A stretch of DNA of 61,355 nucleotides from an uncultured Bacilli bacterium (GCA_947629035.1 CANRCE010000003.1:1-61355); one strand, 5' to 3'. Counted from the first letter of the stretch, positions 1 to 61,355 are shown. The notes: generated from the sequence alone by a model not told the origin. Made by a program: numbers and translations.

Positions 1-414
1 GGTAAGTATAAAAAGAAAAAGGGTGAAAGAAAAAGCGAACAACAAATACAATTAGGTGTTACTAGGTTGTTAGCTGATGTAAAAGAATATGGTGAATATA
101 TTAAGGATAAAAAACAAAAAGAATATGAGAAGAGCGAATCATATAGTAAGCAAGTAGCATTAGAAACTTGTCTAATGAATATTCAAATTGCTAGAGATTC
201 TGTTAAAATAAATCATGAAATATTAACTAAATTAAATCCTGAAGACCCTACTTATTTAAGACAAGCACAAAGATTATCTAGTATAATATCAGCGGGTCAA
301 AAGACTATATTAGATTATTTAAAAGAATTAAATAGACTTCAACATCTATATAATAAAGATGGTGGAGATGACGATAAAGTTACTTTAGTATTTAATGACA
401 ATGTAGAGAGGTGA
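1..414 (+). CDS. partial CDS (5-prime end outside the window); possible terminase small subunit
   Basis: Frame 1 is open from nt 1, with no stop before the tracked TTG at 67. Lys/Glu-rich helical protein two genes upstream of TerL. Function assigned by position only. Confidence 0.4.
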   Translation, partial: GKYKKKKGERKSEQQIQLGVTRLLADVKEYGEYIKDKKQKEYEKSESYSKQVALETCLMNIQIARDSVKINHEILTKLNPEDPTYLRQAQRLSSIISAGQKTILDYLKELNRLQHLYNKDGGDDDKVTLVFNDNVER

Positions 415-686
415 TTAAGTTGGAAAAATATAAATCAGTTGAATACATTACATTGTTTGGTAAGGAATATGAAATTGAAAGCAATAAAAATGGTTATATT
501 AAATTAAAAGATTCACCTATCTTTATTAAACAAGGTATTGTATATACTCCAAGAAATAGTACTCCACTTTCATTAGCGCAAACTGATAAAATAAGAAAAA
601 AGATGGTTAGGATTGTTGATAATGATACAAGAAGTGAAGAACAAAAAACTAATGAAGCGATAGTGGAAATGTTTAAGGAGGGTTAG
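411..686 (+). CDS. hypothetical protein (91 aa; start may be TTG at 420)
   Basis: Overlaps the upstream stop (GTGA). GAGAGG lies just upstream. No motif recognised. Confidence 0.5.
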   Translation: MIKLEKYKSVEYITLFGKEYEIESNKNGYIKLKDSPIFIKQGIVYTPRNSTPLSLAQTDKIRKKMVRIVDNDTRSEEQKTNEAIVEMFKEG

Positions 687-689
687 TAG

Positions 690-2168
690 ATGACTACTGA
701 TAACCAAATAAGAAAAATCTTAAACAAAATAGATAAAACACCTAAAAATAAAAAGATAGAATTAAATTCTAAAGAAATCTTTGGTTTAGGTTATAAGCCT
801 CTATTAGAAACGAAAGCGAACTTTATCGTTATGAAGGGTTCGCGTAATAGCAAGAAGTCAGTTAATAACTTTAGGCGAGCAGTTTTAAAATTAATAGGTA
901 GAGTAATGGGTACTAATGACCCTAATCTAAAATGTAATGTTTTAGTTATACGTAAATATTTAACAGACCACTCAGGTTCAACTAGAAAAGAAATTATTAA
1001 AGCAATAAAAGCATTAGGATTAACTGATTTATTTATAATACCTAAATCAGAATTAACTATAACATATAAACCAAAAGGAACTTGCTTTTTCTTCCGTGGT
1101 ATGGATGATGTTCAATCTATTACATCCATTACTTGTGAAGAAGGTTATATTACAGATGTAATATTCGAGGAAGCATTCCAAATAACTAATTATGATGATG
1201 TTGATAAAGTTTTATGGTCTATTCGTGCATTACCTGAACCATATTATCCACAATTTATGTTTATGTTAAATAGTTGGAACGAGGAACATTGGATAAATGA
1301 AAAATTCTTTAAACCTTGTCCTAAAAATATGGAATTTACTTTAGAGGATTATGACCAATGGAAATTAGCAAAAGACACTAATGGAAAAGAAGGAGATATT
1401 ACTAGAGGATTCAATAAATGGTGTGAATACGACCATGAAGAATTTGGTAGAGTATTAGTTGGTACTTGTAATTTCATGGATAATGAATTCGTTTCAGAAC
1501 TAGACTTAAAACGATTTGATAGATTAAGACATTCTAATCCAGATGCTTTTAAAGTTATAGGATTAGGTAATTGGGGTGTTACAGAAGGTAATGTATTTAC
1601 ACACTGGAAAGTTAAAGATTTCAATATTATGGAAATTATTAAACGTAGTGTGAATCCTACTACAGGCAAGCCGACAATTAAAATGTTTAATGGTTTAGAT
1701 TTTGGTTTTAGTACTTCTCCTACTTGTTTTGTAAACCTATTTGTAGATGAGAAAGAATCAGTTATATATATAAATAAAAGTTGGGAACAAGTTGGTTTAA
1801 CGAACCCACAAATAGCCGCTAAGCTTAGAGTATCAGGGTTTAGAGAAGCCATTATATGTTGTGATGCCGCTGAACCTAAATCTATATTAGAGTTAAGACA
1901 TCAAGGTGTATGGAATGCAAGAGCAGGAGATAAATTAGAAATAAGAGATAGAATTGCATTACTAAAATCTTATCATATAATTATTCATCCTTCCTGTACT
2001 AATGTTATAGAAGACTTTAAGAATTGTATCTATGACACAGACCCTAAAACAGGAAAACCAAGATTACCTGAAAGATGGAGTAAAGACCCTTCTGTTGACC
2101 CACACAGCATTGATGCTATTTCATATGCTTTAGGAAAACTACACAAAGGTGGTCTATCTTTCGATTAA
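690..2168 (+). CDS. terL: terminase large subunit
   Basis: 492 aa. N-terminal P-loop-like VMKGSRNSKKS. The acidic C-terminal half is typical of the RNaseH-like nuclease domain. Followed by a strong terminator. Confidence 0.85.
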   Translation: MTTDNQIRKILNKIDKTPKNKKIELNSKEIFGLGYKPLLETKANFIVMKGSRNSKKSVNNFRRAVLKLIGRVMGTNDPNLKCNVLVIRKYLTDHSGSTRKEIIKAIKALGLTDLFIIPKSELTITYKPKGTCFFFRGMDDVQSITSITCEEGYITDVIFEEAFQITNYDDVDKVLWSIRALPEPYYPQFMFMLNSWNEEHWINEKFFKPCPKNMEFTLEDYDQWKLAKDTNGKEGDITRGFNKWCEYDHEEFGRVLVGTCNFMDNEFVSELDLKRFDRLRHSNPDAFKVIGLGNWGVTEGNVFTHWKVKDFNIMEIIKRSVNPTTGKPTIKMFNGLDFGFSTSPTCFVNLFVDEKESVIYINKSWEQVGLTNPQIAAKLRVSGFREAIICCDAAEPKSILELRHQGVWNARAGDKLEIRDRIALLKSYHIIIHPSCTNVIEDFKNCIYDTDPKTGKPRLPERWSKDPSVDPHSIDAISYALGKLHKGGLSFD

Positions 2169-8699: not shown

Positions 8700-9588
8700 C
8701 TTCAATTACGACAAACTAATGAAAGTAATTAGAGAAGTTCAACAAAACACTAAATACTTTAATATAATAAAAGAAACTAATGATAATATTCTAGTTAGTT
8801 GTCCATATCATAAAGGAGGGCAAGAAAGAAGACCAAGTTGTGGTATTCATATTCAAACATTAGTATATCATTGTTTTACTTGTGGAGCAAGTGGTACATT
8901 TTTTGATATGATGCAAGACATATATCAACCAATAGAAGAAACACAATTAATGAATGAAAGAGATGACGATGTCTTTACATTACCTGAAAGAGAAAATAAA
9001 ATGTTAAAATCTAAATTACCTGATGTAGTTCATTATGAATATAATGTTGGATTAACTAAATACTTACAGAAAAGAAAATTAACTAGTGCAGTTTGCCAAG
9101 AATATTTAGTAGGATATAAAGATGATGAAGTAGTATTTCCTATTAGAAATTTAAAGGGAGAGATTAGATTTTATGTAACAAGAAATGTATATAAAAAAGA
9201 ATATAAGTTATCTAATGATGATAAATTATTATATGGATTATATGAATTGTTTCAAAGAGAAAGAAAACCTAATTATTGTTTTATAGTAGAAAGTCCTATT
9301 AACGCATTAACTTTAAGAGTATGGGGCTTTAATGCAATAGCACTAATGGGAACAGGTTCTCATAAACAAATAGAAGATATAAAGAATTTACCTATTAGAG
9401 AATTTATATTATGCTTCGATGGAGATGAGGCAGGAAGAAAAGCAACTAAGACATTTAAAGATAGACTTGTAAATAAATTAGTAAAGACTGTATTAATATA
9501 TGAAGGAAAAGATGTAAATGATTTAACTAAAGAAGAGTTTAGTATCTTATTAAAGGAATGCAATATCGATGAGGAGGGATTACGATGA
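8683..9588 (+). CDS. DNA primase (zinc ribbon + Toprim)
   Basis: CPYHKGG...SCGIH...HCFTCGASG zinc ribbon. Toprim residues VESPINAL and CFDGDEAGRKA. Confidence 0.85.
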   Translation: MTYLSNFNYDKLMKVIREVQQNTKYFNIIKETNDNILVSCPYHKGGQERRPSCGIHIQTLVYHCFTCGASGTFFDMMQDIYQPIEETQLMNERDDDVFTLPERENKMLKSKLPDVVHYEYNVGLTKYLQKRKLTSAVCQEYLVGYKDDEVVFPIRNLKGEIRFYVTRNVYKKEYKLSNDDKLLYGLYELFQRERKPNYCFIVESPINALTLRVWGFNAIALMGTGSHKQIEDIKNLPIREFILCFDGDEAGRKATKTFKDRLVNKLVKTVLIYEGKDVNDLTKEEFSILLKECNIDEEGLR

Positions 9589-10553
9589 AGCAAGATTTTA
9601 CATTATATTTGGCGGCCGCACCTTCAATGTATAGCAATAAATATGTTAAGGAATATGGAGAAAGGTTATCTAATGAACATCATATAGATATTCTTTCAAG
9701 TCAATTTAATGAAAAAGAATTTATTATTAAAGGTATTAAAAATAATTGGTTTCAAGGTAAACTAATGATAGATTCTGGTGCATTTAGTGCTTGGAACTTA
9801 GGTAAGAAATTAAATAAGGATATTAGAGTTGATGTAGATGAATATATTAACTTTATAAATGAATATGGAGATTATTTTGATGTAATAGTACAAATAGATG
9901 CTGTTACAGGTAAAGATGGATTAGATGAAGGTCACGTTGAAAAACAAAAAGCAACTTGGGAAAACTTTATCTATATGAGAAGTAAAATTAGAAAAGATTT
10001 ATGGCCTAAATTCATACCAGTAGTCCATGCAGGAGATACTTGGGACTTTTTAGATATGGTTTTAAATTATGTAGATGAAGATGGAAATCATATTGAATAT
10101 TTAGGATTAGGTGGTCCACAAAACATTCAAGCAGAGAGAAATACAAATTGGTGGTTTGAAGCATTTAGTAGAATAGCAAAGAGTAGTAATCCAAATGTTA
10201 AAACACATGGATTTGGTATGACGACATTAAAAATGTTAGATGAGTTACCATTAACCAGTGCTGATAGTAGTAGTTGGAACGCATTTGGTAGATTTGGAAC
10301 TATTATAACACCATTTGGTCCAATCACTTGTAGTGATAGAAAAATGCATGAAAAGAATAACTTTAATAATTTAACGAAAGAAAAACAAGATGAAATAAGA
10401 AAATATTTAGAAGGATTAGGTTCTACTCCTGAAAAATGTTTAGCATCTATAATGGAAAGAAATTATGTTAATATGTTATATTATCAAGCATACGCTGAAA
10501 AGAAAAGAAATACTGAATTAAGTAGTAAACCTCATAGAAAAAGATTATTTTAA
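9585..10553 (+). CDS. dpdA: DpdA-like (tRNA-guanine-transglycosylase superfamily) DNA 7-deazaguanine transglycosylase candidate
   Basis: IDSGAFSAW resembles the TGT catalytic DSGGFQ box. There is a second Asp box, LTSADSSSW. About 320 aa, in a replication module. No CxCxxC zinc site seen. Confidence 0.5.
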   Translation: MKQDFTLYLAAAPSMYSNKYVKEYGERLSNEHHIDILSSQFNEKEFIIKGIKNNWFQGKLMIDSGAFSAWNLGKKLNKDIRVDVDEYINFINEYGDYFDVIVQIDAVTGKDGLDEGHVEKQKATWENFIYMRSKIRKDLWPKFIPVVHAGDTWDFLDMVLNYVDEDGNHIEYLGLGGPQNIQAERNTNWWFEAFSRIAKSSNPNVKTHGFGMTTLKMLDELPLTSADSSSWNAFGRFGTIITPFGPITCSDRKMHEKNNFNNLTKEKQDEIRKYLEGLGSTPEKCLASIMERNYVNMLYYQAYAEKKRNTELSSKPHRKRLF

Positions 10554-11614: not shown

Positions 11615-13840
11615 ATGGGATTAATTTCAGGAAGACCAGAAAAAGTTTTAAAAAAGCCAATAGTAAAAGAAAAGAAGAAATCTGAACCAAAACAAAATAT
11701 CCTGACATTAATACAACAAATTAAAACTAATTTTGATAAATACTTAACACGATTTAAAGATGATTATGAAGTTATCTATAAAAGAGAAGATTTAGAAAAA
11801 TTCATCAATAATTGTGATGATATAGTTGCAATCGATACAGAAACAACCGGATTAAGTGTTGATGATAAATTAGTTGGTGTTTGTGTATATAGTCCAGGAC
11901 AGAAAGCAATTTATGTTCCAGTTTATCATATTGACTGTATTCTTAATAAGGATGTTGAAGAAGTAGCAAGTAAAGAAGACATTCATTGGTTTATTAGTGA
12001 ATTAAATAAAAAGAAATTAATTTATCACAATGCCGCATTCGACTTAAGAGTATTAAAACTTACAACAGGTGTAGATATGAATTATCCTTATTGGGATACT
12101 TTAGTTGGTGCACACTTAAGTAACTTTGATAAAAATAAAAGAAACTTAAAGGACCAATATAATATGTATGTAGCAAAAGATGATGATGCATTTGGTCATT
12201 ATTCAGATTTGTTCCAAGGAGTTACATTAGAGAAGTTACCAATTAATTTAGTCTATATTTATGCCGCTAGAGACGCTTACATGACGTATGAGCTATATAA
12301 ATATCAAAAAGGATTATTTGATAATGAATATGCTGAACAAAAGAGAGTATTTGATTTAGAGATTAAATTAACTAAAGTTATTAGTGAAATGAAAATCGAA
12401 GGTGTATATTTCGACAAAGAATATACAGAAAAACTTTCTGAAGGATTAAATGCTGAAATGGAAGTAGTTAGAAAAGAACTTTATGAATTAGTAAGTAAAA
12501 GTGTTGGAATAACATTTGATATGAAAAAGTTCGACCCTAACTCACCAGTTAAGTTAAAAGAGTTATTATTTAGGTATATGAAATTAAAATTACCTAGAGG
12601 AGAAACTTATAAGACAGTAAGAGTAGATGAAGAAACTTTATCTAAATTGAATCATCCAGTATGTGTTAAATTATTAGATTATAGAAAACTATTTAAGCAA
12701 ATAAATACTTATGTAGATAAGATGCACACAGTAGTTGATAGTGATGGATGTATACATTCAGATTTTAATAGTTTTGGTGCAATAACAGGAAGGTTTAGTT
12801 CAAGTAATCCAAATTTCCAAAACATTCCAAATGAATTTAAAAGTCCAGGAGGAAATAAATATAATATAAGAGGTATGTTTACTCCTAAACCTGGAGACAT
12901 TTGGATTGGTGCTGATTATAGTGGACAAGAGGTTAGAGTAGCCGCCGCTATATCAAAAGATAAAAATTTATATGATGCATTTGAACATGGAAAAGATATA
13001 CATGCATTCATGGCAAGTCTTGCATTTAAAATGCCATATGAAGAATGCCTAGAATTTAGACCTGAAGATGACCCTCAAGGACGATGGAAAAAAGGCGATG
13101 TTAATAAAGAAGGTAAAGCAAGAAGAAAGAAAGCAAAATCAGTTACTTTTGGTTTAGCATATGGAACAAGTGCTCAAGGGTTAGCTGAGACAATAGGATG
13201 TAGTGTTGAAGAAGCACAAGAAGTAATGGATGCTTATTTTGAAGCCTTTCCAACAATCAAAGATGCTATTAATAAAGCACAAGAATATGGAAAGACACAC
13301 GGTTATGTTAAAACTTTATTAAATAGAATAAGACCTATTGACCATATTTTAGAAGGTCCATTTGTTGTAGAATTAGCAGAAAATACTCAATATAATTTCG
13401 ACCCTGATTTAAACAGTAATGATGGAACAAGTACATTAACTGAATCATTTAAGGAAGAAATTATAGAAAATTATTCTAAATTAAAATCTTATAAAGATAA
13501 GAAATCTTATGAAGATTATTTAAGAAGACAAAACATAGTTATTAAAAATAATCAAAATAACTATAACTCAGCATTAAGACAATGTTTTAATAGTTGGGTA
13601 CAAGGTACTTCTGCTGAACAAACTAAAATAGCATTAGTAAAGATTTTCGAAGATGAAAGATTAAGAAAATTAAATGCTAGAATTGTATTGTCAATACATG
13701 ACGAAAATATTATTACAGTTCCAATTGAAAATAAAGATGAAGCCGCTAAGTATTTATATGAAGATATGATATCAGCCGCAAATGAAGTTGTTGATATTGT
13801 ATTTAAAAGTGATGTCGACTTCTATGAAAGGTGGAAATAG
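11615..13840 (+). CDS. family A DNA polymerase with 3-prime-5-prime exonuclease domain
   Basis: Exo motifs AIDTETTGL, YHNAAFDLRV and YAARDAY. Pol motifs DYSGQEVRV (A), KSVTFGLAYG (B) and SIHDEN (C). Confidence 0.92.
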   Translation: MGLISGRPEKVLKKPIVKEKKKSEPKQNILTLIQQIKTNFDKYLTRFKDDYEVIYKREDLEKFINNCDDIVAIDTETTGLSVDDKLVGVCVYSPGQKAIYVPVYHIDCILNKDVEEVASKEDIHWFISELNKKKLIYHNAAFDLRVLKLTTGVDMNYPYWDTLVGAHLSNFDKNKRNLKDQYNMYVAKDDDAFGHYSDLFQGVTLEKLPINLVYIYAARDAYMTYELYKYQKGLFDNEYAEQKRVFDLEIKLTKVISEMKIEGVYFDKEYTEKLSEGLNAEMEVVRKELYELVSKSVGITFDMKKFDPNSPVKLKELLFRYMKLKLPRGETYKTVRVDEETLSKLNHPVCVKLLDYRKLFKQINTYVDKMHTVVDSDGCIHSDFNSFGAITGRFSSSNPNFQNIPNEFKSPGGNKYNIRGMFTPKPGDIWIGADYSGQEVRVAAAISKDKNLYDAFEHGKDIHAFMASLAFKMPYEECLEFRPEDDPQGRWKKGDVNKEGKARRKKAKSVTFGLAYGTSAQGLAETIGCSVEEAQEVMDAYFEAFPTIKDAINKAQEYGKTHGYVKTLLNRIRPIDHILEGPFVVELAENTQYNFDPDLNSNDGTSTLTESFKEEIIENYSKLKSYKDKKSYEDYLRRQNIVIKNNQNNYNSALRQCFNSWVQGTSAEQTKIALVKIFEDERLRKLNARIVLSIHDENIITVPIENKDEAAKYLYEDMISAANEVVDIVFKSDVDFYERWK

Positions 13841-15375: not shown

Positions 15376-16186
15376 AGGACTTGGAGCAGTAAGTGGTTTA
15401 TTAAGTAGATTAAATACTCCAGATATATTAAATAAACTTTCTGATGCTTTAAAGGCTGAAATAATGGGTGGAGAAAATGGAGAAAGTTTACCGTCAACGT
15501 TCTTCACCCCATCCTCTATGATATGTAAAAGGCAAATGTTTTATAAGGCAAAAGGAGAATCTCCTGAACCTTCACCTTTCGACTATCAAATGACAGGGAT
15601 GGCAGAAAGTGGTACTGATAGACATAATCGATTACAAAATCATCTAAAAAATCTAACAGATTGGGAATATGTAGACGTAGCAAAGTATATAGAAGATAAT
15701 CATATTGATTTAGAGATTGTAAGCCATATTGGAAATGAATGGAAATTACGAAATCTAAAATATAATGTATCGTTTATGTTAGATGGTATTCTACGCTATA
15801 AACCAACTAACAAATATTACATAGTAGAAATTAAAACTGAAATTAGTTTTAAAAGTAATGGAAGACAAGATGTTGACCCGTTCCATAAACATCAAGGCTT
15901 AGCATATACACAACTGCTAAAGATTCCAGATGTAATATTTATATATGAAAATAGGGACGATTGTAGTTTAAAATTTTATCTTTATACTCCAACACCTGAA
16001 GAGATAGAGAAATATTTTAGACGAAAATTAACTGATGTATTATATGCTTTAGAAAAAGATGAATTACCGCCTAAAGTAACAGTTGAGGATATTAGTTTAA
16101 CTGATGTTATTAAAACTGATAAAGTTTGCAACTATTGTCCTTATAGAATGAAATGTGGAAGGGATGATAACAATGTCAAAGGCTAA
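15368..16186 (+). CDS. Cas4/RecB-like PD-(D/E)XK exonuclease with a Cys cluster
   Basis: D...IVEIKTE nuclease core. One N-terminal Cys (MICKRQ) plus C-terminal CNYCPYRMKC, the pattern typical of Fe-S Cas4-family nucleases. Confidence 0.65.
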   Translation: MNRGLGAVSGLLSRLNTPDILNKLSDALKAEIMGGENGESLPSTFFTPSSMICKRQMFYKAKGESPEPSPFDYQMTGMAESGTDRHNRLQNHLKNLTDWEYVDVAKYIEDNHIDLEIVSHIGNEWKLRNLKYNVSFMLDGILRYKPTNKYYIVEIKTEISFKSNGRQDVDPFHKHQGLAYTQLLKIPDVIFIYENRDDCSLKFYLYTPTPEEIEKYFRRKLTDVLYALEKDELPPKVTVEDISLTDVIKTDKVCNYCPYRMKCGRDDNNVKG

Positions 16187-16586
16187 AGCAATAGGAACTG
16201 CCGCTGAAACAGCAGTAGTTAAATATCTTAGAGAAGTACATGGATTAAATAATGTAACTAGAGTTGTCTTACATGGTAAAGATGATGAAGGAGATATTCA
16301 TATTGGAGATGTAGATAACCCAGATGTCATTATAGAAGTAAAATCTAGGAAAAATGAATGTTCTTATAAAGAGGTTGAAGAATTCATAAGAGAATTAGAA
16401 GCTGAAGCAATTCATACTTGGGGAGAGTATTGGAGATTATCACGACCTACGATAAAGAAAGCATTCTTAGTAATTAAAAGACCAGGAAAAGGTAAACCTG
16501 AAGATTGGTGGTTATGTTGGGTAGATAATCATATAATAGTAAGATGTAGATTAGGTGATTATTTTATACCAAAGGAGATGAAGTAA
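16173..16586 (+). CDS. PD-(D/E)XK nuclease, Holliday-junction-resolvase-like
   Basis: GDIHIGD...VIIEVKSRK motif. ATG at 16173 is preferred because GGAAGGG lies 9 nt upstream. Confidence 0.45.
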   Translation: MSKAKAIGTAAETAVVKYLREVHGLNNVTRVVLHGKDDEGDIHIGDVDNPDVIIEVKSRKNECSYKEVEEFIRELEAEAIHTWGEYWRLSRPTIKKAFLVIKRPGKGKPEDWWLCWVDNHIIVRCRLGDYFIPKEMK

Positions 16587-24415: not shown

Positions 24416-24759
24416 TGGATAGATTAAGGTTTTGGTTCGAAACTGAATGCCTTTGCTATTTAAGATGCATTTGGTTATCTATTAGATATGGATATGATGA
24501 AGATAACCTTGCTGAAATGTTTAATACTAGAGTAAATATAAAACCAGAAGATAGGTTGAAACTAAAAGAAGCATTAGATAGTAGAGATATGAAAAAGTTT
24601 GACGAACTAATGGAAAAGTTAGACATAAGATATGATTTCGATGAAAAAGGATATAATATGTTTTTATATAAAGTAAAATTATATAAGGCAATTATATTTA
24701 TATTATCGATAATATTAGTATATGGTTTACTTGTATTAATATATGAAGGAGGAAAGTAG
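24412..24759 (+). CDS. hypothetical protein with a C-terminal TM helix (start uncertain)
   Basis: No clear RBS. The C-terminal IIFILSIILVYGLLVLIY is hydrophobic. Confidence 0.4.
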   Translation: MMDRLRFWFETECLCYLRCIWLSIRYGYDEDNLAEMFNTRVNIKPEDRLKLKEALDSRDMKKFDELMEKLDIRYDFDEKGYNMFLYKVKLYKAIIFILSIILVYGLLVLIYEGGK

Positions 24760-24760
24760 A

Positions 24761-25357
24761 GTGAACGATAATAACAAAGTAGTTTTAAGTAAAGAACAAT
24801 TAGATAATAATTGGGAGTATTTAAAAACATTATTAAAATCAACTAAAAGAGAAGGAATAGATGATTTAATCAAGTACATTGAATCAACAGATTTTAGGTT
24901 AAGTCCTGCTAGTGCTAGTTATCATCATTCTTATATAGGAGGTTTAGTTGTCCATACTATTGAAGTTTATAAAAATGCTGTTGAATTAAATAAAGCAATG
25001 AAATTCAAAATTAGTGATGAACAAATGATAATTGCCGCTGTATTACATGATTTATGTAAAGCAAATACATATGACACTTATAAAAGAAATGTAAAAGAAA
25101 ATGGTCAATGGAAAGAAGTTGATGCATTCACTAATAATGATAAATGGCCTATAGGTCACGCTTCAAAATCAATTATTATTGCACAAATGTTCATCAAATT
25201 AGATGATTTAGAAATAAGTATGATTTATGGACACATGGGTCCATTTGATGGAAATGAACATTTCTATACAGCATTGACTCAAAAATATCCTGAAGCAATT
25301 TTAATGCATACAGCTGATATGTTGTCAAGTAAGGATACAAGAATTTATGAAAAATAA
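24761..25357 (+). CDS. HD-domain metal-dependent phosphohydrolase
   Basis: GTG at 24761 follows GAAGGAGGAAAG. HHSYIGGLVVHT and VLHDLCK provide the H...HD motif. Confidence 0.7.
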   Translation: MNDNNKVVLSKEQLDNNWEYLKTLLKSTKREGIDDLIKYIESTDFRLSPASASYHHSYIGGLVVHTIEVYKNAVELNKAMKFKISDEQMIIAAVLHDLCKANTYDTYKRNVKENGQWKEVDAFTNNDKWPIGHASKSIIIAQMFIKLDDLEISMIYGHMGPFDGNEHFYTALTQKYPEAILMHTADMLSSKDTRIYEK

Positions 25358-25646
25358 GAAAGTAGGTATTGAGTATTATAATATAGGTAATTATTTAGTT
25401 GCTTATACTGATTATTTACCTAAAAGAAAATTACCTATTTATGTAATATGTCAAAAAGACAATGAATTTATTCATATGGGAATAGTAAAGTATTATGGTC
25501 CTTGGAGAAAATATATTTGGGATACAGACGGAATATTTGATAATATAATATTTGATTCTAAATGTCTTAGAGCAATGGCTGACTTTGTTGATTACATAAA
25601 TAAAGAATATAAAGAAGGAAGGATAGAGGTTAATAGATATGTATAA
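25347..25646 (+). CDS. hypothetical protein (99 aa)
   Basis: Overlaps both neighbours. Weak RBS. Confidence 0.45.
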   Translation: MKNKKVGIEYYNIGNYLVAYTDYLPKRKLPIYVICQKDNEFIHMGIVKYYGPWRKYIWDTDGIFDNIIFDSKCLRAMADFVDYINKEYKEGRIEVNRYV

Positions 25647-26307: not shown

Positions 26308-26309
26308 GT

Positions 26310-26331
26310 TGTATTATATATTAGGAGGAGG
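26310..26331 (+). promoter_or_regulatory. TGTATTA box
   Basis: GTTGTATTATATATTAGGAGGAGG. Confidence 0.4.
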
Positions 26332-26339
26332 TGTAAAGA

Positions 26340-26831: not shown

Positions 26832-26835
26832 TCGT

Positions 26836-26858: not shown

Positions 26859-26862
26859 GAAT

Positions 26863-50421: not shown

Positions 50422-50797
50422 GGGGATGTTTAGGTTTCGACTGCAGGTTGTTAGTATGAGTAGCAAGTACTAGGCCGCTAGTATAAAGAGCAAACAAAAT
50501 AAACGCTAAAACTTTTATTTCTAGATTAGCAAATTTATTTGCACCTAAAGCTTCTTACGCTTTAGTATAATCTATGCTCATATAGTAGGTCCAGCATTCG
50601 TCGACTATATGAGTATCGTAAAAGAATGCAACCCTCTCGGTTGAAAGTTTTAAGAGTAAATTAAACTTTATATGTTAGTGTAGTGTTGTTTAGTTACTAG
50701 ACTGACCTCTAATCCTCCTTAACTAAAATAAACTTGTAGGATAACTTGTATTTTAGCAGTTTGTAGGACACGAGTTCGATTCTCGTCATCTCCACCA
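50422..50797 (+). ncRNA. ssrA: tmRNA (SsrA)
   Basis: 5-prime GGGGATGTTTAGGTTTCGACTGCAGG, 3-prime GGACACGAGTTCGATTCTCGTCATCTCCACCA. The acceptor GGGGATG/CATCTCC has G3-U. An internal tag frame begins after AAAUAAAC. Confidence 0.85.
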
Positions 50798-50801
50798 ATA
50801 T

Positions 50802-50875
50802 GCAGGTTTAGTTCAATGGTAGAATGATGGTCTCCAAAACCACTGATAAATGTTCAAATCATTTAACCTGTGCCA
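50802..50875 (+). tRNA. trnW: tRNA-Trp (anticodon CCA) with encoded CCA end
   Basis: Acceptor GCAGGTT/AACCTGT. D arm TAGTTCAATGGTAGAA. Anticodon loop CTCCAAA at 50832-50838. T loop TTCAAAT. One A-C mismatch in the anticodon stem. Confidence 0.75.
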
Positions 50876-53676: not shown

Positions 53677-54750
53677 ATGGATGAGATTTTTGAACTTTTA
53701 TCTGCAAAAAATCTAGAAACTGTTTGGGATGAAACAGTTGTTAATAGAATTCCATATGCAGGTGAAAAATTGTTTGGAACATCTAAACAATATGACTTAA
53801 CACTATCAATGTTTAAAGGTAGCAAAGGTTTACCTGTTGCATTAAAACCTTCAACATTTGATGCAAAAGCGACTTTACGTCCTAGAATTGGAGTAAGTAA
53901 ACTTGAAACTGAAATTCCATTCTTCCGTGAAGCATTCAAATTAACTGAAAAAGATAGAAGACAACTAGTTGCATTTAGAGCAAGTTCTCCTGAATTATTT
54001 AATAGCATTATAGAAAATATTTATAATGATAGTAATAATTTAGTTGAAGGTGCATTAGCTGTTAATGAACAAATGAGATGGTCATTATTAACTGATATGG
54101 CTATTACAGTAAGTTCTAATGAAGCTGATTATGATTATGACTTCGACCCTGATAATAGTTGGCATACAAATAACTTTGTTCAATTAGCTGGTACATCATT
54201 ATGGACTGACTTAGTAAACTCTAATCCATTAGAAGATTTACAAGAAGGTATTGATAGTATTGCTAATAGAACTGGTGAAACAATCACTAAAGTTTATATG
54301 AATAAAGTTACATTCGCATTACTAAGACAAAACAAAAACATCAAAGATGCTATCACTGTAAATAATAACAGTTTTGCTACTGTTTCTAAAATCCGTGAAT
54401 TATTAATGAGTGAATTAGGAGTAACTGTTGAATTATATGATAAACAATTCCAAAAAACTCAAGACAACGGAACTTTAGTTAGTGAAAAATATCTTAAAGA
54501 TGGTTTTGTAGTATTGTTACCAGATGGACAAATTGGTACAACAGTATTCGCTTACACACCTGAAGAAATTGATGCCGCCGCATTAGAAAATAAAGGTGCT
54601 GATGTTGCTGTTGTTGAAACTGGTGTTACTTTAACAAGTATTATCCATGAACATCCAGTAACAAGCGAAATTATATGTTCTGAATTATGCTTACCTACTC
54701 TTGAAAAAGCTGATTCAGTATATGTATTAAAAGTAACTCAAACTGATTAG
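53677..54750 (+). CDS. major capsid protein (lambda gpE-like family)
   Basis: 357 aa. Position after scaffold and decoration genes. A strong terminator-like structure follows. Confidence 0.7.
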   Translation: MDEIFELLSAKNLETVWDETVVNRIPYAGEKLFGTSKQYDLTLSMFKGSKGLPVALKPSTFDAKATLRPRIGVSKLETEIPFFREAFKLTEKDRRQLVAFRASSPELFNSIIENIYNDSNNLVEGALAVNEQMRWSLLTDMAITVSSNEADYDYDFDPDNSWHTNNFVQLAGTSLWTDLVNSNPLEDLQEGIDSIANRTGETITKVYMNKVTFALLRQNKNIKDAITVNNNSFATVSKIRELLMSELGVTVELYDKQFQKTQDNGTLVSEKYLKDGFVVLLPDGQIGTTVFAYTPEEIDAAALENKGADVAVVETGVTLTSIIHEHPVTSEIICSELCLPTLEKADSVYVLKVTQTD

Positions 54751-54757
54751 AAAAATT

Positions 54758-54897
54758 AAAACGCATACTTAAGCTCTTATGTCAGCATCAATAGTTTTTA
54801 TATCAGATGGTATAAATATATTAACTGATGGAAAACATTAAGCTCGCCAAAGAGCTTGGTTGATATTGATATTAGTTTTTGTATGCGTTTTTTTTAT
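54758..54897 (+). other. long compound hairpin / terminator after the capsid gene
   Basis: Outer stem AAAACGCATAC (54758-54768) pairs with GTATGCGTTTT (54881-54891), then a T-run. Inside there is an AAGCTC/GAGCTT hairpin and a duplicated TTAAGCTC. Confidence 0.5.
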
Positions 54898-54933
54898 TAT
54901 TGTAATATATTCTATGAAAGGAGAAAAAGTCAG

Positions 54934-55356
54934 ATGACTAATAAATTTACAGTTAAATTAGACGGTGTTATTTATGCACCAGGTGAACTTGAGATTACTA
55001 GTAAAGGTTATAAACCCATTAAGGTTAAAGCTCCTGCTGAATCTGAAGTAGAAAAAGCCAAAGCTGAAGAAGCCGCTAAGATTGCTAAAGAAGAAGCTGA
55101 AAAAGCTAAAGCTGAAGAGGAAGCTCGTAAAGCTGAAGAAGCTAAAAAAGCTGAGGAAGAGGCAAAGAAAGTTGAAGAATTAGCTAAGGCAGAAGAGGAA
55201 GCTAAAAAGAAAGCAGAGGAAGATGCTAAAAAGGCTGAAGAAGCTAAAGCAAAGGAAGCTGAAAAGAATGCTAAAGAAGCAACTGATGCTAAAGCAACTG
55301 ATAAAGTTGAAGACAAAGCAAAAACTGATGCTAATAAAACTACAGAAAAGAAATAA
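54934..55356 (+). CDS. Lys/Ala/Glu-rich repetitive head-module protein (140 aa)
   Basis: ATG at 54934 follows AAAGGAGAAAAAG and is preferred over the tracked start at 54856. About 100 aa of AEEAKKAEEEAKK-type repeats. Confidence 0.55.
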   Translation: MTNKFTVKLDGVIYAPGELEITSKGYKPIKVKAPAESEVEKAKAEEAAKIAKEEAEKAKAEEEARKAEEAKKAEEEAKKVEELAKAEEEAKKKAEEDAKKAEEAKAKEAEKNAKEATDAKATDKVEDKAKTDANKTTEKK

Positions 55357-55370
55357 GGAGGTGTTAACTT

Positions 55371-55769
55371 ATGACTAGAATTCAAATTCTAGAACATCAG
55401 TTAAAAACAAGCCTCACTGAAGACGACTATTGTTCTATAACAGAAGACGATAAGTCTTTTGTTTTGGCTAAAGCTAAACAAATCGTTGACGGTTATGTAA
55501 ATTACAAAAGTGGTAGTGAATTAGATTATGTTGTTTGTGATATAGCATTAGATATGTTATTAAATCAAATGACTAATAGAGTTGATAGGAAACCATTAGC
55601 TGTTCCTTCCAATGTTGCTTCTATCAAAGAAGGTGATACTATTATCACTCTTAATACTAAAGAGGATGATAAAACAGAAAAGAAAACATCTTCAATGACT
55701 GGAATGGATGCTTATTATATTGATACTTATAGAGATGAGTTAAATAGATATAGGCGATTAAGGAGGTAA
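55371..55769 (+). CDS. head-tail connector protein (gp6-like) candidate
   Basis: 132 aa. Called by position and size in the head-completion module. Confidence 0.45.
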   Translation: MTRIQILEHQLKTSLTEDDYCSITEDDKSFVLAKAKQIVDGYVNYKSGSELDYVVCDIALDMLLNQMTNRVDRKPLAVPSNVASIKEGDTIITLNTKEDDKTEKKTSSMTGMDAYYIDTYRDELNRYRRLRR

Positions 55770-55775
55770 TGAAGG

Positions 55776-56165
55776 ATGGAATTACCTGATATGAGAGCAA
55801 TTCACGCCTTACTTTATAATGATAAAATGACTGTAAGACGAACTAATAGCGATCCAAATGAATATGGAATAATCGAAGACGAACGTACTATAGTTTATGA
55901 AGATGAACCTTGTAAACTTAGTATGTATACGTTATCTAGAGAAGACTTACCAAATGACGATAGTGTATATTTTAGAAAGTCGAATTCAATTATCAAAATT
56001 TTCTGTGACCCTAAATACTACTTTAAAGCAGGTGATTGGGTTGATGTTTATAGAAAAAGAAGAGATAATGATGAATGGGAACTATTCTTTAAAGGGTTAT
56101 GCAATAAACCAAATGTACACGGAAGTCACCAAGAAGTTGAAGTCTCTGAAAGGGAGGTAAACTGA
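55776..56165 (+). CDS. head closure / head-tail adaptor candidate
   Basis: 129 aa. Called by position. Contains the only GATC I found (55851). Confidence 0.4.
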   Translation: MELPDMRAIHALLYNDKMTVRRTNSDPNEYGIIEDERTIVYEDEPCKLSMYTLSREDLPNDDSVYFRKSNSIIKIFCDPKYYFKAGDWVDVYRKRRDNDEWELFFKGLCNKPNVHGSHQEVEVSEREVN

Positions 56166-56166
56166 T

Positions 56167-56607
56167 ATGGCTACTAGTGTTGGTTCAATTTCGTTAAAAA
56201 TGGAAATTGGTGATATACAAAAGTATATCGATAAAATGAAAGCGGCTAAAAAGAGTCTACCTCAATTTTTTAGAATGGTAGTAACCCAAATGGGAGATGC
56301 CGCTATAGATTATGCTATTCCAAGAACTAGAGTTCGTACTGGTAGATTAATAAGTAGTTATGTCTTATCTCCGATTGAAGAAAGAGATAATTCATATAAA
56401 ATAACAGTGTCAAATAGTGCATCAGAGAATGGGGAAAGCTCTTATGCAATATATAATGAATTTGGTACAAGATTCATGGCACCAAGATTAATGCTTACTA
56501 CTGCTAGGGAAATGATTCTTACAGAAGGACCTGAACTAATAGAGAAAGCATTTATTAGAGTATTGAGAGGTGATTCTAGTGGAGGATATACTTTCAAACT
56601 CAATTAG
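56167..56607 (+). CDS. HK97 gp10-family tail-component protein
   Basis: YNEFGTRFMAPRLML matches the EFGT...P(R)PF signature of the family. Confidence 0.6.
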   Translation: MATSVGSISLKMEIGDIQKYIDKMKAAKKSLPQFFRMVVTQMGDAAIDYAIPRTRVRTGRLISSYVLSPIEERDNSYKITVSNSASENGESSYAIYNEFGTRFMAPRLMLTTAREMILTEGPELIEKAFIRVLRGDSSGGYTFKLN

Positions 56608-57040
56608 TTTGATGATTCATAGTCATCCAGAACTATCTGATATCCCCATCTATGTAGATAGAAAAAACCAAGATTTTAAGGTTCCTGCTTTTTATGTATA
56701 TAATGCTTATACTAAAATAACAAAAGGTAGGAGAGATAGAGAAGTATTTGATGAAAATGTTAGGTATTCATATTTTATAATTTATAAAAATGGAATTGAC
56801 CAAATGTTTTCTGCAGATGCTAATCACGTTCTTGGTATATTAAGAAGAGTTTTTCGTTATGTTGAAATTATAATGCCTGATAAATCGAAACGCCTTTTCC
56901 ATGTAAATGATTTTGATGTAAGTTATAATGATTTAGCAATGACGATAACTATAAGATTTAAGATACCATATAGATATATATCTGAATGCGAAAAAGTTAA
57001 ATCGCTAGAAGATATAATAATAGTGAAGGAGGAAAATTAA
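56570..57040 (+). CDS. tail completion protein candidate (start uncertain)
   Basis: Lies between the gp10-like gene and the sheath gene. No clear RBS for the tracked GTG. Confidence 0.4.
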   Translation: MILVEDILSNSISLMIHSHPELSDIPIYVDRKNQDFKVPAFYVYNAYTKITKGRRDREVFDENVRYSYFIIYKNGIDQMFSADANHVLGILRRVFRYVEIIMPDKSKRLFHVNDFDVSYNDLAMTITIRFKIPYRYISECEKVKSLEDIIIVKEEN

Positions 57041-57041
57041 T

Positions 57042-58400
57042 ATGGCAATTGGAACTTGGGTTACACAAAACAAAGTTAGACCTGGTGTTTATATTAATTA
57101 CGTATTTAGTGATGCTGAATTAATAAACTATGCTAGTGACGGTGTATTAGCACTACCATATGTTTTACCTTTAAGTCCTGATGAAAATTCAGTAATTGAA
57201 GTAACAGCAAACACTATGAAATCTAAAGCATTAGATAAGTATGGCGTAATTAGTGGTAGTGATGCCTATAAGTATATCACAACATTACTTAAATATTCTT
57301 CAAAACTATTACTTTTCTCTGCAGGTAAAGGTGGTACAAAAGCTAAATTAACAGTTAGCTCTGAATTTACTGCTACTGCAAAAGGTGCTGGTATTGAAGG
57401 TAATAAGTTTGCTGTTGAAGTATTAGCTTTAAAAGATAAAAAGCAAACTTTTAATACTTACTATAATAATGAATTAGTAGCTATTCAAGTTTATGATTTT
57501 GATTCAAAAACTATGAGTGGTGAAAATGACTATGTTGATATCGTTGTTGACGGTGAAACAGTTACTGAAGCTGTACCAACAGTTTTAGCTGGTGGTGTAG
57601 ATGGAGAAATAGATGCTAAAGAAACATTAACAGCAATGTTTGCCGCATTAAGTTGTTATGAATTAGAAATAGTATCTATTCCATTTGACGAAGACAAATA
57701 TGATTTCAGTGTTGTAGAAGATTTCATTAATGATTATAATGCAAATCATGTACAAAAAGTTGTTGTTGTATATCCTAAAACAGATGATGAATCAGCAAGT
57801 AAAAATAGTGAGTTTGTTATAGCAGTTGCCGCTCAAACAGCTACATTAGCAAATGGATTAGTATTAGACCCATTAAAATTATCTACTTATGTAGCCGCAA
57901 AAGAAGCAGGTGCTACTTATACTGATGACTTAACATTTAACTTATGTGATGATATAGTTTCTATTAATGAATTATCAAATGAAAAAGTAGAACAAAATAT
58001 CAAAATGGGAGTTTTAAATCTAAGTTTAAGAAGTGATAGAAGTGTAGTTATAGAAGATGACATTAATACGTTAGTTATTCTTTCTGAAAATCAATCTAGT
58101 TCATTAAAAGCAAACGATACTTTAAGATTATTAAATAATTTATCTTATAGAATTGTAAGTTTTGGTGAAAATACTATTATTGGTAAAAAGAAAGTTACTG
58201 AAACAACTTTAAATCTTGTTAAATCATTTGTTATTGGTATAATGAATGAATATGTTGAAGAACAAGCAATTGTTAATTTCGACCCTAACAACGATGTTCA
58301 AGTTGTATTTGGTGAACAACCTGATGGAATCTTATGTACTATCGCTATACAAAAAACACAAAGTGCTAAGAAATTATACTTTAGCATTGGTGTAAGATAG
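57042..58400 (+). CDS. contractile tail sheath protein (XkdK-like)
   Basis: 452 aa. N-terminal GTWVTQNKVRPGVYINY. Immediately upstream of the tube gene. Confidence 0.8.
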   Translation: MAIGTWVTQNKVRPGVYINYVFSDAELINYASDGVLALPYVLPLSPDENSVIEVTANTMKSKALDKYGVISGSDAYKYITTLLKYSSKLLLFSAGKGGTKAKLTVSSEFTATAKGAGIEGNKFAVEVLALKDKKQTFNTYYNNELVAIQVYDFDSKTMSGENDYVDIVVDGETVTEAVPTVLAGGVDGEIDAKETLTAMFAALSCYELEIVSIPFDEDKYDFSVVEDFINDYNANHVQKVVVVYPKTDDESASKNSEFVIAVAAQTATLANGLVLDPLKLSTYVAAKEAGATYTDDLTFNLCDDIVSINELSNEKVEQNIKMGVLNLSLRSDRSVVIEDDINTLVILSENQSSSLKANDTLRLLNNLSYRIVSFGENTIIGKKKVTETTLNLVKSFVIGIMNEYVEEQAIVNFDPNNDVQVVFGEQPDGILCTIAIQKTQSAKKLYFSIGVR

Positions 58401-58413
58401 GAGGTAATATTAG

Positions 58414-58893
58414 ATGAACAATCATAGTGAAAGAGAATTATTAGATATTCAAAACCTTGTAAATGGTGCTGAAGGTACAGTTTATTTACAAAGAGATAAC
58501 ACAATGATTCCGCTATTAAATGTTAGAACTATTACCGCCACTGTTACTAAAGAAAAAGAAACAAAGAAAGTAATAGGTTCTAAAGTAGCGAAAAATAGAT
58601 TGTCTGGATATACTTTAGCAGGTACAATGAATGTTTATTATTGTAGTTCATACTTTACTCAAATGTTAAGAGATGATATCAAAAATGGTACTAATACAAC
58701 ATTTACTTTAATCGTAACAAACGAAGACCCTGCATCAATGATTGGTAGACAATCAATTGCTTTATATCATGTTGATATTGATAGCCATGATATTTTAGCA
58801 ATCGATATTGATGCATCTGATATGAATAGTGATATTCCATTTACATTTGATGATTTTGAAATCCTTGAAGCCTTTGAAGAAGTTAATAAGTAA
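58414..58893 (+). CDS. tail tube protein (XkdM-like)
   Basis: 159 aa. Gene order is sheath, tube, chaperone. Confidence 0.7.
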   Translation: MNNHSERELLDIQNLVNGAEGTVYLQRDNTMIPLLNVRTITATVTKEKETKKVIGSKVAKNRLSGYTLAGTMNVYYCSSYFTQMLRDDIKNGTNTTFTLIVTNEDPASMIGRQSIALYHVDIDSHDILAIDIDASDMNSDIPFTFDDFEILEAFEEVNK

Positions 58894-58922
58894 TATATTA
58901 ACGAAAGGAGATATGATTTCAA

Positions 58923-59309
58923 ATGGGTTTATTACAATTTTTAAAAGACAATCCGATTGATGAAACGTCCAAAACATTCAAAATCAAATTAGATGGTCGT
59001 TTAGCACAAGCTGAACCATTCGAAATGAATACTATTAATAGGGCTGAATATAAGAACCTTCAAAATATGGCAATTAAAAATGGTAAATTACAAACTGATA
59101 AATTAGCTACTTCAGTAGTTGTTAACAGTTGTGTTAATCCTAAATTTAATGATGTCGATTTGATTAAGGAACTTAAAGTTGCTACACCTGAGCAAGCAGT
59201 TGAAAAATTACTTACAGCAGGTGAAATTAGTGCCCTAGCCTTACAAGTAGTTGAGTTGTCTGGACTAAATGTTTCTGCAGATGTACTTGAAGAAGAAGTA
59301 AAAAACTAA
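58923..59309 (+). CDS. tail assembly chaperone (XkdN-like, G product)
   Basis: 128 aa, upstream of the tape measure. Ends in a slippery heptamer. Confidence 0.65.
   Translation: MGLLQFLKDNPIDETSKTFKIKLDGRLAQAEPFEMNTINRAEYKNLQNMAIKNGKLQTDKLATSVVVNSCVNPKFNDVDLIKELKVATPEQAVEKLLTAGEISALALQVVELSGLNVSADVLEEEVKN
59300..59306 (+). promoter_or_regulatory. programmed -1 frameshift slippery site A_AAA_AAC
   Basis: In the zero frame it reads gtA AAA AAC TAA. The -1 frame is open from 59306 into ORF 59333-59518. Confidence 0.65.
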
Positions 59310-59518
59310 TAAAAGCGGGCGACCCAGACACAATGTATGCATACTATTGTTTGCATAAATTCCACTGGTCTCCTGCTTTTTTTGTTAATCTGCCCCTTAA
59401 GGAAAAGGTTGTGATTAAGGTAATGATTGACGAAAGAATCAAGGAAGAGAAGAAGCATTCATCAACCACAAAAACTGGACAATCCTCCAAACATATATCG
59501 TCTAGACGAAGGAGGTGA
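59306..59518 (+). CDS. frameshift extension of the tail chaperone (GT-type product)
   Basis: The -1 frame relative to 58923 has no stops. HKFHWSPAFFVNLPLKEKVVI is typical of the T-part. ORF 59333 has no RBS of its own. Confidence 0.55.
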   Translation, partial: LIKAGDPDTMYAYYCLHKFHWSPAFFVNLPLKEKVVIKVMIDERIKEEKKHSSTTKTGQSSKHISSRRRR

Positions 59519-59524
59519 TAGGGT

Positions 59525-61355
59525 ATGGATGGAGAAATTACTCTACCTATTGAAGTCATTGATAATGCCACTAAACAATTAGATAACATTATTAATGAAA
59601 TGAATAAATTCAAAAACACTGCTGAAAAAAGTAAAAAAGTAACTTTTATGGACAAACTTTCAGATGGTGTTGACAGTGCCCTATTAAAATTATCGAAAGG
59701 CGAAAAATTATTAAATAGCTTCGGTCTTAAAACGACTGGAGCTTTTAGTAATTTCGCTTCAGGTAATTATGTTGAAGCCACAACAGCCTTGATGGATATG
59801 TCTGATGAAGCTACTAGATTACAAGGTAGACTAGCATTAGCATTAGACCAAGGTAGTAGTGTAAATGCTTTTAAAGATGAAATAAGAAAAGCCGCTGACG
59901 AAGCTCGTACTAGTTTTGATGCTATAGCAGAAGGTGTTGCAGGTATAGGTTTAGCTTCTGGTGATATGTTTAATGATAAAGAATTATTAGACTTTACTAA
60001 ATCCTTATCTATGTTATATAAGATAGGCGGAGCAACAACAACTGAAACAAAAGCCGCTATGGTTCAAATTAGACAAGCATTAGCAAAAGGTAAATTACAA
60101 GGTGATGAGTTTAAATCATTATCTTCATTACCAGGATTCTTAGATTTAATGGCAAAAGAACTAGGTGTAGCAAAAGGCGAAGTTAAAGAATTAGCAAGTG
60201 AAGGAAAAATTACTGCTGAAGTATTTAAAAATGCTATGTTACATGGGGCTACAGAATTACAAAGTAAGTTAGACACTATTCCAAAAACATTTGGTGATAG
60301 AGTCAATGAAGTAAATAATGCTTTAAAACAATTTCAAAATAAAATAGGTTTATTATTAAATAAATTAGCAAATTCTAAGCCAGTTATTATATTTTTTGAA
60401 GCCTTAAAGAAGACATTTGATAAATTAGTAAATGCCGCTAGAAGGTTAACAAGATTTTTAGATAAATTAATACCTAAAGATATTGCAGACGAGTTTGATG
60501 ATATATCAGACAAGGCTGATAAGTTAGCTAATATATTCGCTACAGCCGTTTTAGTAGTATTAGGCTTAGTTATAGCCAAAGTCGCTTTACTTGGTGCACA
60601 ATTTATCATAATGGGTATACAAGGCTTTATAGGAACTTTTTCAATATTATGGCCACTATATTTACTTATTGCTGTTCTATTGTTAATAGGATATGCAACA
60701 GGTGAATTAGGAAATACATTCCAAGAAGTATTTGGTTTCATTGGTGCCTTTGTAGGAGTTACAATAGCATTAATATGGAACTTATTCTTAGCTTTATTAG
60801 ATTTAATTTTAGGTGTCGTTAATACCTTAGGAAGAGCATGGATGATGTTTGCAAACTTCTTTGGTAACATATTTAATGACCCAATCGCATCTATTATTTA
60901 TTTATTCCGAGATTTAGCAAATACCGTTTTAGGTATATTAAAAGCAATAGCAAGTGCTATTGATAAGTTGTTTGGCTCTAATTTAGCAGGTGCTGTTCAA
61001 GGATGGATGGATGGTGTTGATAATTTAGCTGATAAAGCCGCAAATAAATGGGGTAATGGTTCATACGACGCAGATGAATGGGAAGACATAAAAAGTGAAT
61101 CATTGGGACTATCAAGGATGGATTATGTTGATGCTGGTGTTACTGGTTATAACATTGGTGCTGGTATTGGTAAAGGATTAGACAGTGTATTAGATGGTAG
61201 TTTATTTAGTGATATAAGTGATTTAGGAGATAGTACTGATATGTTTGGTACTGACTTAAATGATTATGATGCAAGTACAGGTACAGGTTCGCTATCAACT
61301 AAATTAGATGACGATACTGTAGATGAATTAAAAGCATTTGCTGAAATTCAATACA
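59525..61355 (+). CDS. tail tape measure protein (partial; 3-prime end outside the window)
   Basis: GAAGGAGGTG RBS. N-terminal tape-measure domain (QIRQALAKGKLQGDEFKSLSSLPGFLDLMAKELGVAKGEVKELASEGKITAEVFKNAM). Hydrophobic central segment. Open to the end of the window. Confidence 0.85.
   Translation, partial: MDGEITLPIEVIDNATKQLDNIINEMNKFKNTAEKSKKVTFMDKLSDGVDSALLKLSKGEKLLNSFGLKTTGAFSNFASGNYVEATTALMDMSDEATRLQGRLALALDQGSSVNAFKDEIRKAADEARTSFDAIAEGVAGIGLASGDMFNDKELLDFTKSLSMLYKIGGATTTETKAAMVQIRQALAKGKLQGDEFKSLSSLPGFLDLMAKELGVAKGEVKELASEGKITAEVFKNAMLHGATELQSKLDTIPKTFGDRVNEVNNALKQFQNKIGLLLNKLANSKPVIIFFEALKKTFDKLVNAARRLTRFLDKLIPKDIADEFDDISDKADKLANIFATAVLVVLGLVIAKVALLGAQFIIMGIQGFIGTFSILWPLYLLIAVLLLIGYATGELGNTFQEVFGFIGAFVGVTIALIWNLFLALLDLILGVVNTLGRAWMMFANFFGNIFNDPIASIIYLFRDLANTVLGILKAIASAIDKLFGSNLAGAVQGWMDGVDNLADKAANKWGNGSYDADEWEDIKSESLGLSRMDYVDAGVTGYNIGAGIGKGLDSVLDGSLFSDISDLGDSTDMFGTDLNDYDASTGTGSLSTKLDDDTVDELKAFAEIQY

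Follow-up and report, generated by a model that had tools for sequence, protein, structure and literature searches.

We analysed a stretch of DNA of 61,355 nucleotides (the window) from an uncultured Bacilli bacterium, which belongs to a phage and in which the words GCAGC and GCTGC, together written GCWGC, do not occur. The window is the entire contig C3 (28.0% G+C) of an assembly of 80 contigs (1.25 Mb, 25% GC, rated 90% complete). Its + strand is rich in purines (A 41%, T 31%, G 18%, C 10%), and all of its long open reading frames (ORFs) lie on that strand. The gene for the large terminase subunit (690–2165, + strand; PF04466 at 1e-32, PF17288) marks the contig as that of a tailed phage.

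The only other long contig of the assembly without both GCWGC and GATC is C14 (24.5 kb), which encodes a portal protein, a Mu-F-like protein, a LysM/CHAP lysin and a tail fibre. The two contigs overlap at both ends, over 315 bp (96.8% identity; window 1–315) and 601 bp (97.7% identity; window 60755–61355), and together close into a circular map for the phage, about 84,982 bp long, of which C3 makes up about 72%. An independent ENA contig (L025) that is 99.7–99.8% identical to C3 and C14 spans one of the two junctions. Metagenomes that contain this phage include the ENA assemblies ERZ27249647, ERZ27249167, ERZ27060145 and ERZ27249446. Since the overlaps are only 97% identical, the sample must contain two or more strain variants of the phage, and the assembly is therefore broken at the junctions.

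The gene for a family A DNA polymerase (11615–13837, + strand) lies within a complete replication module, the other genes of which start at 4646 (SNF2 helicase), 7482 (DnaB), 8683 (primase), 17889 (RecA) and at 21852 and 22789 (clamp loader). The completeness of this module suggests a virulent, self-replicating phage. Additional genes on C3 encode a sliding clamp, a scaffold protein, a Cas4-like exonuclease, an ATP-dependent ligase and a dUTPase. The structural block (53677–61354, + strand) contains the genes for the major capsid protein (53677–54747, +; PF03864), the tail sheath (57042–58397, +) and the tape measure protein (+), which starts at 59525, runs to the contig end and continues on C14. 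Orthologous blocks are found in four related loci described below (L027, L031, L033 and L036). Taken together, the source is a contractile-tailed, probably virulent phage, with a gut Firmicute of low GC content as its host. Window 50422–50875 holds a transfer-messenger RNA (tmRNA) gene with the tag AKTFISRLANLFAPKASYALV, directly followed by a tRNA-Trp(CCA).

Similarity to known phages is low. The capsid protein is at most 38% identical in amino acid sequence to those of isolated phages (Psychrobacillus, Brevibacillus and Streptococcus phages), the polymerase shares about 32% identity with its counterparts in Clostridium phage phiCTP1 and Streptococcus phage Dp-1, and the isolates matched by these two proteins are phages of Firmicutes only. 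Matches at the nucleotide level are restricted to short segments of the ligase and dUTPase genes of Fusobacterium and Clostridium phages. A search of IMG/VR with the polymerase returned a single match at 24% identity, and the capsid protein had no match in the JGI metagenomes. With the terminase as query, 400 genomes from the order of the co-binned host (the rest of assembly G000, without C3, C14 and a further contig, C18) yielded only distant homologues.

An exact scan of the window found 43 copies of GCCGC, three of GCGGC and none of either GCAGC or GCTGC, confirming an initial annotation of this sequence in which the latter two had been reported absent from both strands. As also described there, the four-letter words GCAG (found 102 times) and GCTG (128 times) are frequent, and the next base is always A, T or G. 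A maximal-order Markov model predicts 28.7 GCWGC sites on the two strands of the window, and 500 synonymous-codon shuffles, which preserve the protein sequences and the codon usage, gave 35.8±2.4 sites with a minimum of 27. For the whole phage (C3 and C14) the observed zero compares with 39 sites expected from the Markov model and 47.7±2.7 from shuffling. A control word that differs in one letter, GCAGT/ACTGC, occurs 53 times in the window against 50.8 expected from the shuffles. The same shuffles predict 6.0 sites for GCSGC (GCCGC or GCGGC), where 40 are seen, an excess of about 7-fold; in total there are 46 GCSGC sites in the window and 56 on the circular map. The proposal that GCNGC as a whole is not avoided thus holds.

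Alanine codons in the window mostly end in A or T (GCA 398, GCT 314, GCC 76, GCG 33; GCA and GCT together 87%), and for this reason nearly all GCWGC sites would arise from Ala-Ala dipeptides written as GCA-GCN or GCT-GCN. Such pairs supply 45.8 of the 47.7 sites expected in the whole phage. Tabulation of the 40 Ala-Ala pairs in the window, however, gave GCC as the first codon in 37, GCG in three and GCA or GCT in none, in agreement with the claim that Ala-Ala is systematically GCC-first, and in the whole phage 52 of 52 pairs are GCC-GCN or GCG-GCN. The initial annotation had counted about 40 copies of GCCGC on the + strand and read those it checked as Ala-Ala. The count was close and this reading holds for most copies, 37 of the 43 being GCC-GCN in frame 0 of + strand ORFs, but the other six are non-coding. 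Some of its example positions were exact and others were 1–10 bases off; the copies concerned start at 1815, 8451, 12941/12944, 24263, 54574/54577, 55072 and 60053. The copy at 1815–1819 (+) is a GCC-GCT pair inside the large terminase gene, and those at 54574 and 54577 lie in GCCGCCGC (54574–54581, +), which encodes Ala-Ala-Ala in the major capsid gene. The Ala-Ala dipeptide itself is not depleted (39 seen on C3, 34.9 predicted from amino acid frequencies), and the purge of GCWGC is therefore synonymous.

Outside Ala-Ala, GCWGC is likewise absent, with about 4.5 sites expected in the whole phage (about 1.8 in other reading frames and 2–3 in intergenic DNA; P about 0.01 for the two together). 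As this test is weak, the argument for selection acting on the DNA itself rests on comparisons with the co-binned host and with related phages.

A second word, not mentioned in the initial annotation, is purged even harder than GCWGC. GATC occurs once in the window, where 86.6 copies are expected from shuffling, and this copy (55851–55854 by exact scan) is also the only one in the whole phage, against 140 expected from shuffling and 197 from the Markov model. By the Markov model, GATC and GCWGC are the two outstanding absent words of the phage. CATG is partly purged (35 seen versus 94 by shuffling in the window, 63 versus 147 in the whole phage), as is AGCT (93 versus 175 and 141 versus 257). 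An apparent depletion of ACGGC/GCCGT (6 seen, 24.6 expected) was rejected as an artefact, because the GCC-GCN pairs inflate the count of GCCG.

Relatives were identified by protein searches of Logan and ENA assemblies, which found capsids 86–91% identical to that of the window phage, and about 20 kb was retrieved around several of them. The orthologous 17.7 kb of the window has seen/expected counts of 0/12.4 for GCWGC, 1/48.4 for GATC, 19/61.1 for CATG and 61/84.2 for AGCT. For the same four words in the same order, the counts are 10/20.5, 0/67, 0/63 and 65/87.1 in L027 (capsid 87% identical), 10/18.9, 0/74.4, 40/71.0 and 26/70 in L031 (86%), 14/22.6, 6/70, 38/73.1 and 78/94.6 in L033 (90%), and 37/33, 0/56, 17/68.3 and 111/121.3 in L036 (48%). 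Relatives with capsids 86–91% identical thus retain 10–14 GCWGC sites per 20 kb, while GATC is purged in all relatives (0–6 sites per locus, 56–74 expected). The total purge of GCWGC is specific to the lineage of the window phage, on a GATC-poor background that is shared. The profiles for GCWGC, CATG and AGCT differ among the five relatives, and such variation among related phages is the signature of an arms race. The sister phages L027/L028 and L031 were recovered from ENA ERZ27060145 and ERZ27249446 and from Logan DRR848831.

The relatives also indicate how the sites were lost. Where the relatives could be aligned with the window (nucleotide identity about 75%), 11 of their 23 GCWGC sites are GCCGC in the window, which points to a direct synonymous change of W to C rather than to deamination of 5-methylcytosine (m5C), a C-to-T change. 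In addition, two phage-like contigs from the same bacterial family are poor in GCWGC, with one site against 14.8 expected in L019 (G394:C8) and none against 7.7 in L021 (G361:C14). These two contigs, from two other genera of the family, are also without CATG.

The co-binned host presents the opposite picture. Of its 613 Ala-Ala pairs, 604 (98.5%) are GCW-GCN and nine are GCS-GCN, which argues that translation in the host clade does not disfavour GCW-GCN. Any GCN-GCN pair forces a choice between GCWGC and CCGC/GCGG, and the host and the phage stand at opposite extremes (98.5% GCW-GCN versus 100% GCS-GCN).

We consider it highly likely that the loss of GCWGC represents classical restriction-site avoidance directed at an enzyme of the TseI/LmoJ2 type (GCWGC) or the BbvI type (GCAGC). 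Active avoidance of a TseI/ApeKI or BbvI type of site had been suggested in the initial annotation, and the synonymous, complete and lineage-specific purge supports it, as does the accompanying loss of GATC, itself a classical restriction site, with the enzyme still putative. Under this explanation, the bacteria that the phage infects, or recently infected, would carry a Type II enzyme that cuts unmethylated GCWGC or GCAGC, and the phage lineage would have been selected to lose every copy of GCAGC and GCTGC. The purge would have proceeded by replacing the first alanine codon of Ala-Ala with GCC, a codon rare elsewhere in the phage, and in fewer cases with GCG, leaving the 7-fold excess of GCCGC as a by-product. 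The same process would have eliminated GATC altogether, along with part of the CATG and AGCT sites. Since GCAGC and GCTGC are complements of each other, avoidance of either removes both, and the TseI and BbvI types leave the same trace in the sequence.

Enzymes of this target class are well precedented in Firmicutes, where the TseI/LmoJ2 and BbvI types are both common, and GCWGC is a known restriction-modification recognition word in the wider group of the host. TseI and ApeKI recognise GCWGC, and BbvI recognises GCAGC (PMC3643589, PMC8557920). Listeria monocytogenes has the LmoJ2 restriction-modification system, which recognises GCWGC (PMC10059834). Methylases that produce m5C in GCWGC are known from Clostridium thermocellum (PMC6791906) and from two Bacillus strains, B. 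cereus ATCC 10987 and B. amyloliquefaciens TA208 (PMC3459991). Searches of the whole assembly with PF00145 and PF01555 found nothing on C3 or C14, and so no phage methylase was found that could protect GCWGC sites instead.

Several observations weigh against restriction-site avoidance, or against the co-binned host as the source of the enzyme. One dipeptide supplies nearly all of the statistical power, which leaves little independent evidence for an effect on the DNA. No methylase or nuclease for GCWGC or GCAGC was identified in the co-binned host, at 90% completeness, and the host does not avoid the word itself (observed/expected 1.06 by the Markov model; 619 versus 571 by shuffling). In a comparison of seven related genomes, no C5 methylase was found in the two that bear the GCWGC-free contigs L019 and L021, where the PF01555 matches are weak and phage-borne. 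The only C5-methylase locus of the host, a putative restriction-modification island at C1:37.3–41.0 kb, appears to fit CCGC and not GCWGC, which is supported by the word counts of the host given below. The link between the phage and this host consists of binning only. The host has no array of clustered regularly interspaced short palindromic repeats (CRISPR), and hence there is no spacer link to the phage. The tmRNA tags of the phage (AKTFISRLANLFAPKASYALV) and of the host (GNSYKNAVAYA, on C10) differ, a comparison that is uninformative about the link. The true host strain may differ from the co-binned one.

The island on C1 consists of two adjacent C5 methylase genes, the only ones in the host, facing two small unannotated ORFs. 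Two methylases with two nucleases would suit an asymmetric site, and the island was considered as a GCWGC/GCAGC system; this was rejected because the host has purged CCGC and not GCWGC. CCGC occurs 102 times in the host against 440±22 expected from codon shuffling (observed/expected 0.47 by the Markov model), while ACGC, TCGC, GCGC, CCGG and CGCG have observed/expected ratios of 0.98–1.25 by the same model. Other host words with low observed/expected ratios are GATC (0.44), CTAAG (0.31), CTCAG (0.33) and CACTG (0.46).

No PF01555 (N4/N6) methylase was found in the host assembly. A scan for methylase motifs gave a Dam-type orphan on C64 and small NPPY proteins on three other contigs (C24, C76 and C43). 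It also returned PrmC-like and RsmD-like candidates, for which the context suggests a housekeeping role. The Dam-type orphan (C64:1309–2160; D12 class, DPPY) is adjacent to part of an amidase gene on a prophage-like contig of 3.5 kb, and the NPPY proteins of C24 and C76, of 176 amino acids each, are nearly identical. An apparent CRISPR array shared by C68 and the end of C1 proved instead to be a tandem repeat of about 98 bp. This array (C1:89133–90147 and C68:1–400) is built from a unit with two palindromes, TTTCCCGGGAAA and GTTTCACGTGAAAC; it breaks the assembly, with at least 10 copies on C1 and a continuation on C68. Contig C18 (22.7 kb; L024) has no GATC (about 44 expected), four CATG (about 50), one TCGA (about 12) and no CTCAG, with GCWGC mildly low (7 versus 12). 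It is probably another phage or a plasmid with a different restriction history.

The phage itself does not avoid CCGC. Outside GCSGC the word is at expectation (33 seen versus 33.4), and the 52 Ala-Ala pairs add 52 obligatory sites. The phage would thus be fully exposed to the sole restriction system apparently encoded by its putative host, and it is possible either that it does not infect the co-binned strain or that it is protected in some other way.

Candidate genes for such protection are present. The ORF at 9585–10550 (+), just after the primase gene, matches phrog_887 ('queuine tRNA-ribosyltransferase') at an E value of 5.9e-45 and is a predicted DpdA-like DNA-guanine transglycosylase, although it has no match in Pfam, the TGT model included, and no sequence match in the PDB. 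A queuosine-precursor transporter of the YhhQ/Vut_1 type is encoded at 27524–28258 (+; PF02592 at 7e-19, confirmed at C3:27704–28162), and the phage also has a nucleoside 2-deoxyribosyltransferase. The DpdA-like gene sits outside the module at 24743–28258 that holds genes for an HD hydrolase, a short-chain dehydrogenase/reductase, the nucleoside deoxyribosyltransferase and the YhhQ-like transporter. A true QueC is found in neither the phage nor the host; QueD, QueE and FolE were not searched for. Tgt and two genes of the YhhQ type are present in the host, and with no QueC the 7-deazaguanine precursors would therefore be salvaged. Judging from this gene content, the phage probably also modifies its guanines, a candidate for a second, chemical form of anti-restriction.

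These genes suggest a refinement of restriction-site avoidance, rather than a replacement for it, in which defence has two layers. The phage would infect a CCGC-restricting host, Ala-Ala would have been moved to the form that contains CCGC, where a DpdA-type 7-deazaguanine modification would protect it, and avoidance would be reserved for words that the modification leaves uncovered, such as GCWGC and GATC. The DpdA of phage CAjan modifies guanine in GA and GGC contexts and not in GC, GT or GGT, and protection from restriction enzymes follows this pattern (PMC7544227). The complement of GCCGC contains GGC, so that protection could act through the GGC opposite every GCCGC by analogy with CAjan, whereas the guanines of GCWGC are all in a GC context, which CAjan DpdA leaves unmodified. 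The DpdA-like gene and the YhhQ-like transporter, the host's purge of CCGC with an AciI-like island of two methylases and two nucleases, and the lack of CCGC avoidance in the phage are all in keeping with such a division. However, a DpdA of the GA type would also cover GATC, which is nevertheless purged. Additionally, the absence of QueC from both genomes makes import of the precursor a requirement, and the phage may never meet CCGC-restricting hosts, its relatives being likewise without CCGC avoidance. We regard this two-layer arrangement as improbable. If true, codon-pair recoding and base modification would be coupled halves of one anti-restriction strategy.

It is considerably less probable that the phage spares its own genome from a nuclease of its own, one that cuts GCWGC and perhaps GATC to destroy the DNA of the host. 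The roughly 650 GCWGC and 1290 GATC sites of the host chromosome would be shredded by such an enzyme, many phage ORFs are unannotated, and an ORF of 143 amino acids (16155–16583) has a weak, sub-threshold match to Mrr_cat/PD-(D/E)xK. However, a scan of about 60 phage ORFs gave no match to a restriction-endonuclease family, and the 143-residue ORF adjoins the Cas4-like exonuclease in a recombination module, a setting typical of resolvases. The patchy purges among the relatives are also better suited to changing host enzymes than to a conserved phage enzyme.

An origin without any effect at the DNA level, either a translational preference for GCC before alanine, with which the word is largely confounded given the share of expected sites that falls in Ala-Ala, or deamination of m5C in methylated GCWGC, is very improbable, since the host uses GCW-GCN almost throughout, close phage relatives have GCW-GCN at the same positions, no site occurs outside Ala-Ala where about 4.5 are expected, the parallel purge of GATC is beyond the reach of a pair effect on a single dipeptide, and deamination would give GTWGC where the changes seen are W to C.

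Restriction-site avoidance as the preferred explanation places the phage in a well-known category. Staphylococcus phage K is free of GATC. Avoidance of restriction sites in virulent double-stranded DNA phages was reportedly described by Sharp in 1986. The phenomenon has long been known and was surveyed by Rusinov et al. 2018 (PMC6286503). As in those phages, Type II words are missing here beyond chance, their removal is synonymous, and the set of purged words varies among relatives. There is no difference in principle; the purge in the window phage is unusually clean, with zero of about 48 sites left through a single codon-pair rule, and the enzyme is putative.

The closest parallel concerns the LmoJ2 and LmoJ3 (GCNGC) systems of Listeria. 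According to PMC10059834, which cites Lee et al. 2012, LmoJ2 sites are depleted in the lytic Listeria phages A511 and P100. The two cases share the word GCWGC, a Firmicute host and depletion in virulent myoviruses. In the Listeria case, according to the same source, the enzyme is known and the phage sites are fewer and clustered in few genes, whereas the purge described here is total, GCNGC is not avoided and GCSGC is enriched. Other phages have answered GCWGC-cutting enzymes of Firmicutes by methylation. Bacillus phage phi3T encodes a multispecific m5C methylase that acts on GCWGC and GGCC (PMC6791906), and M.BatI, a methylase of prophage origin, acts on GCDGC (PMC8936443). Such phages keep and methylate their sites, while in the window phage no DNA methylase was detected and the sites have been lost.

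DNA modification with 7-deazaguanines through DpdA is known from phages CAjan, 9g, Dp-1 and iggy (PMC6884629, PMC7544227, PMC10484667). The window phage resembles them in having a DpdA-like gene in the replication module and a YhhQ-like transporter, along with the polymerase similarity to Dp-1 noted above. It differs in that no genes for preQ0 synthesis were found, the search having covered QueC, and its DNA modification is a predicted one, an accessory to the purge of GCWGC.

The window phage is a clean new example, in an uncultured phage, of a known phage counter-defence. The trade-off at Ala-Ala, with its possible coupling to DpdA, is the only part that could go beyond the ordinary. The opposite ways in which the phage and its putative host write Ala-Ala, together with the DpdA-like gene, offer a testable case in which avoidance and modification would divide restriction evasion between them. 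Writing every Ala-Ala as GCC-GCN is also a very simple marker with which phage genomes can be scanned for the same pressure, and the sister phages with their differing purges form a good natural series for estimating how fast purge profiles turn over. The purge profile can be read as a fingerprint of the restriction enzymes that circulate in this uncultured clade of gut Bacilli with reduced genomes, and it predicts that enzymes cutting GCWGC and GATC would be common in that clade.

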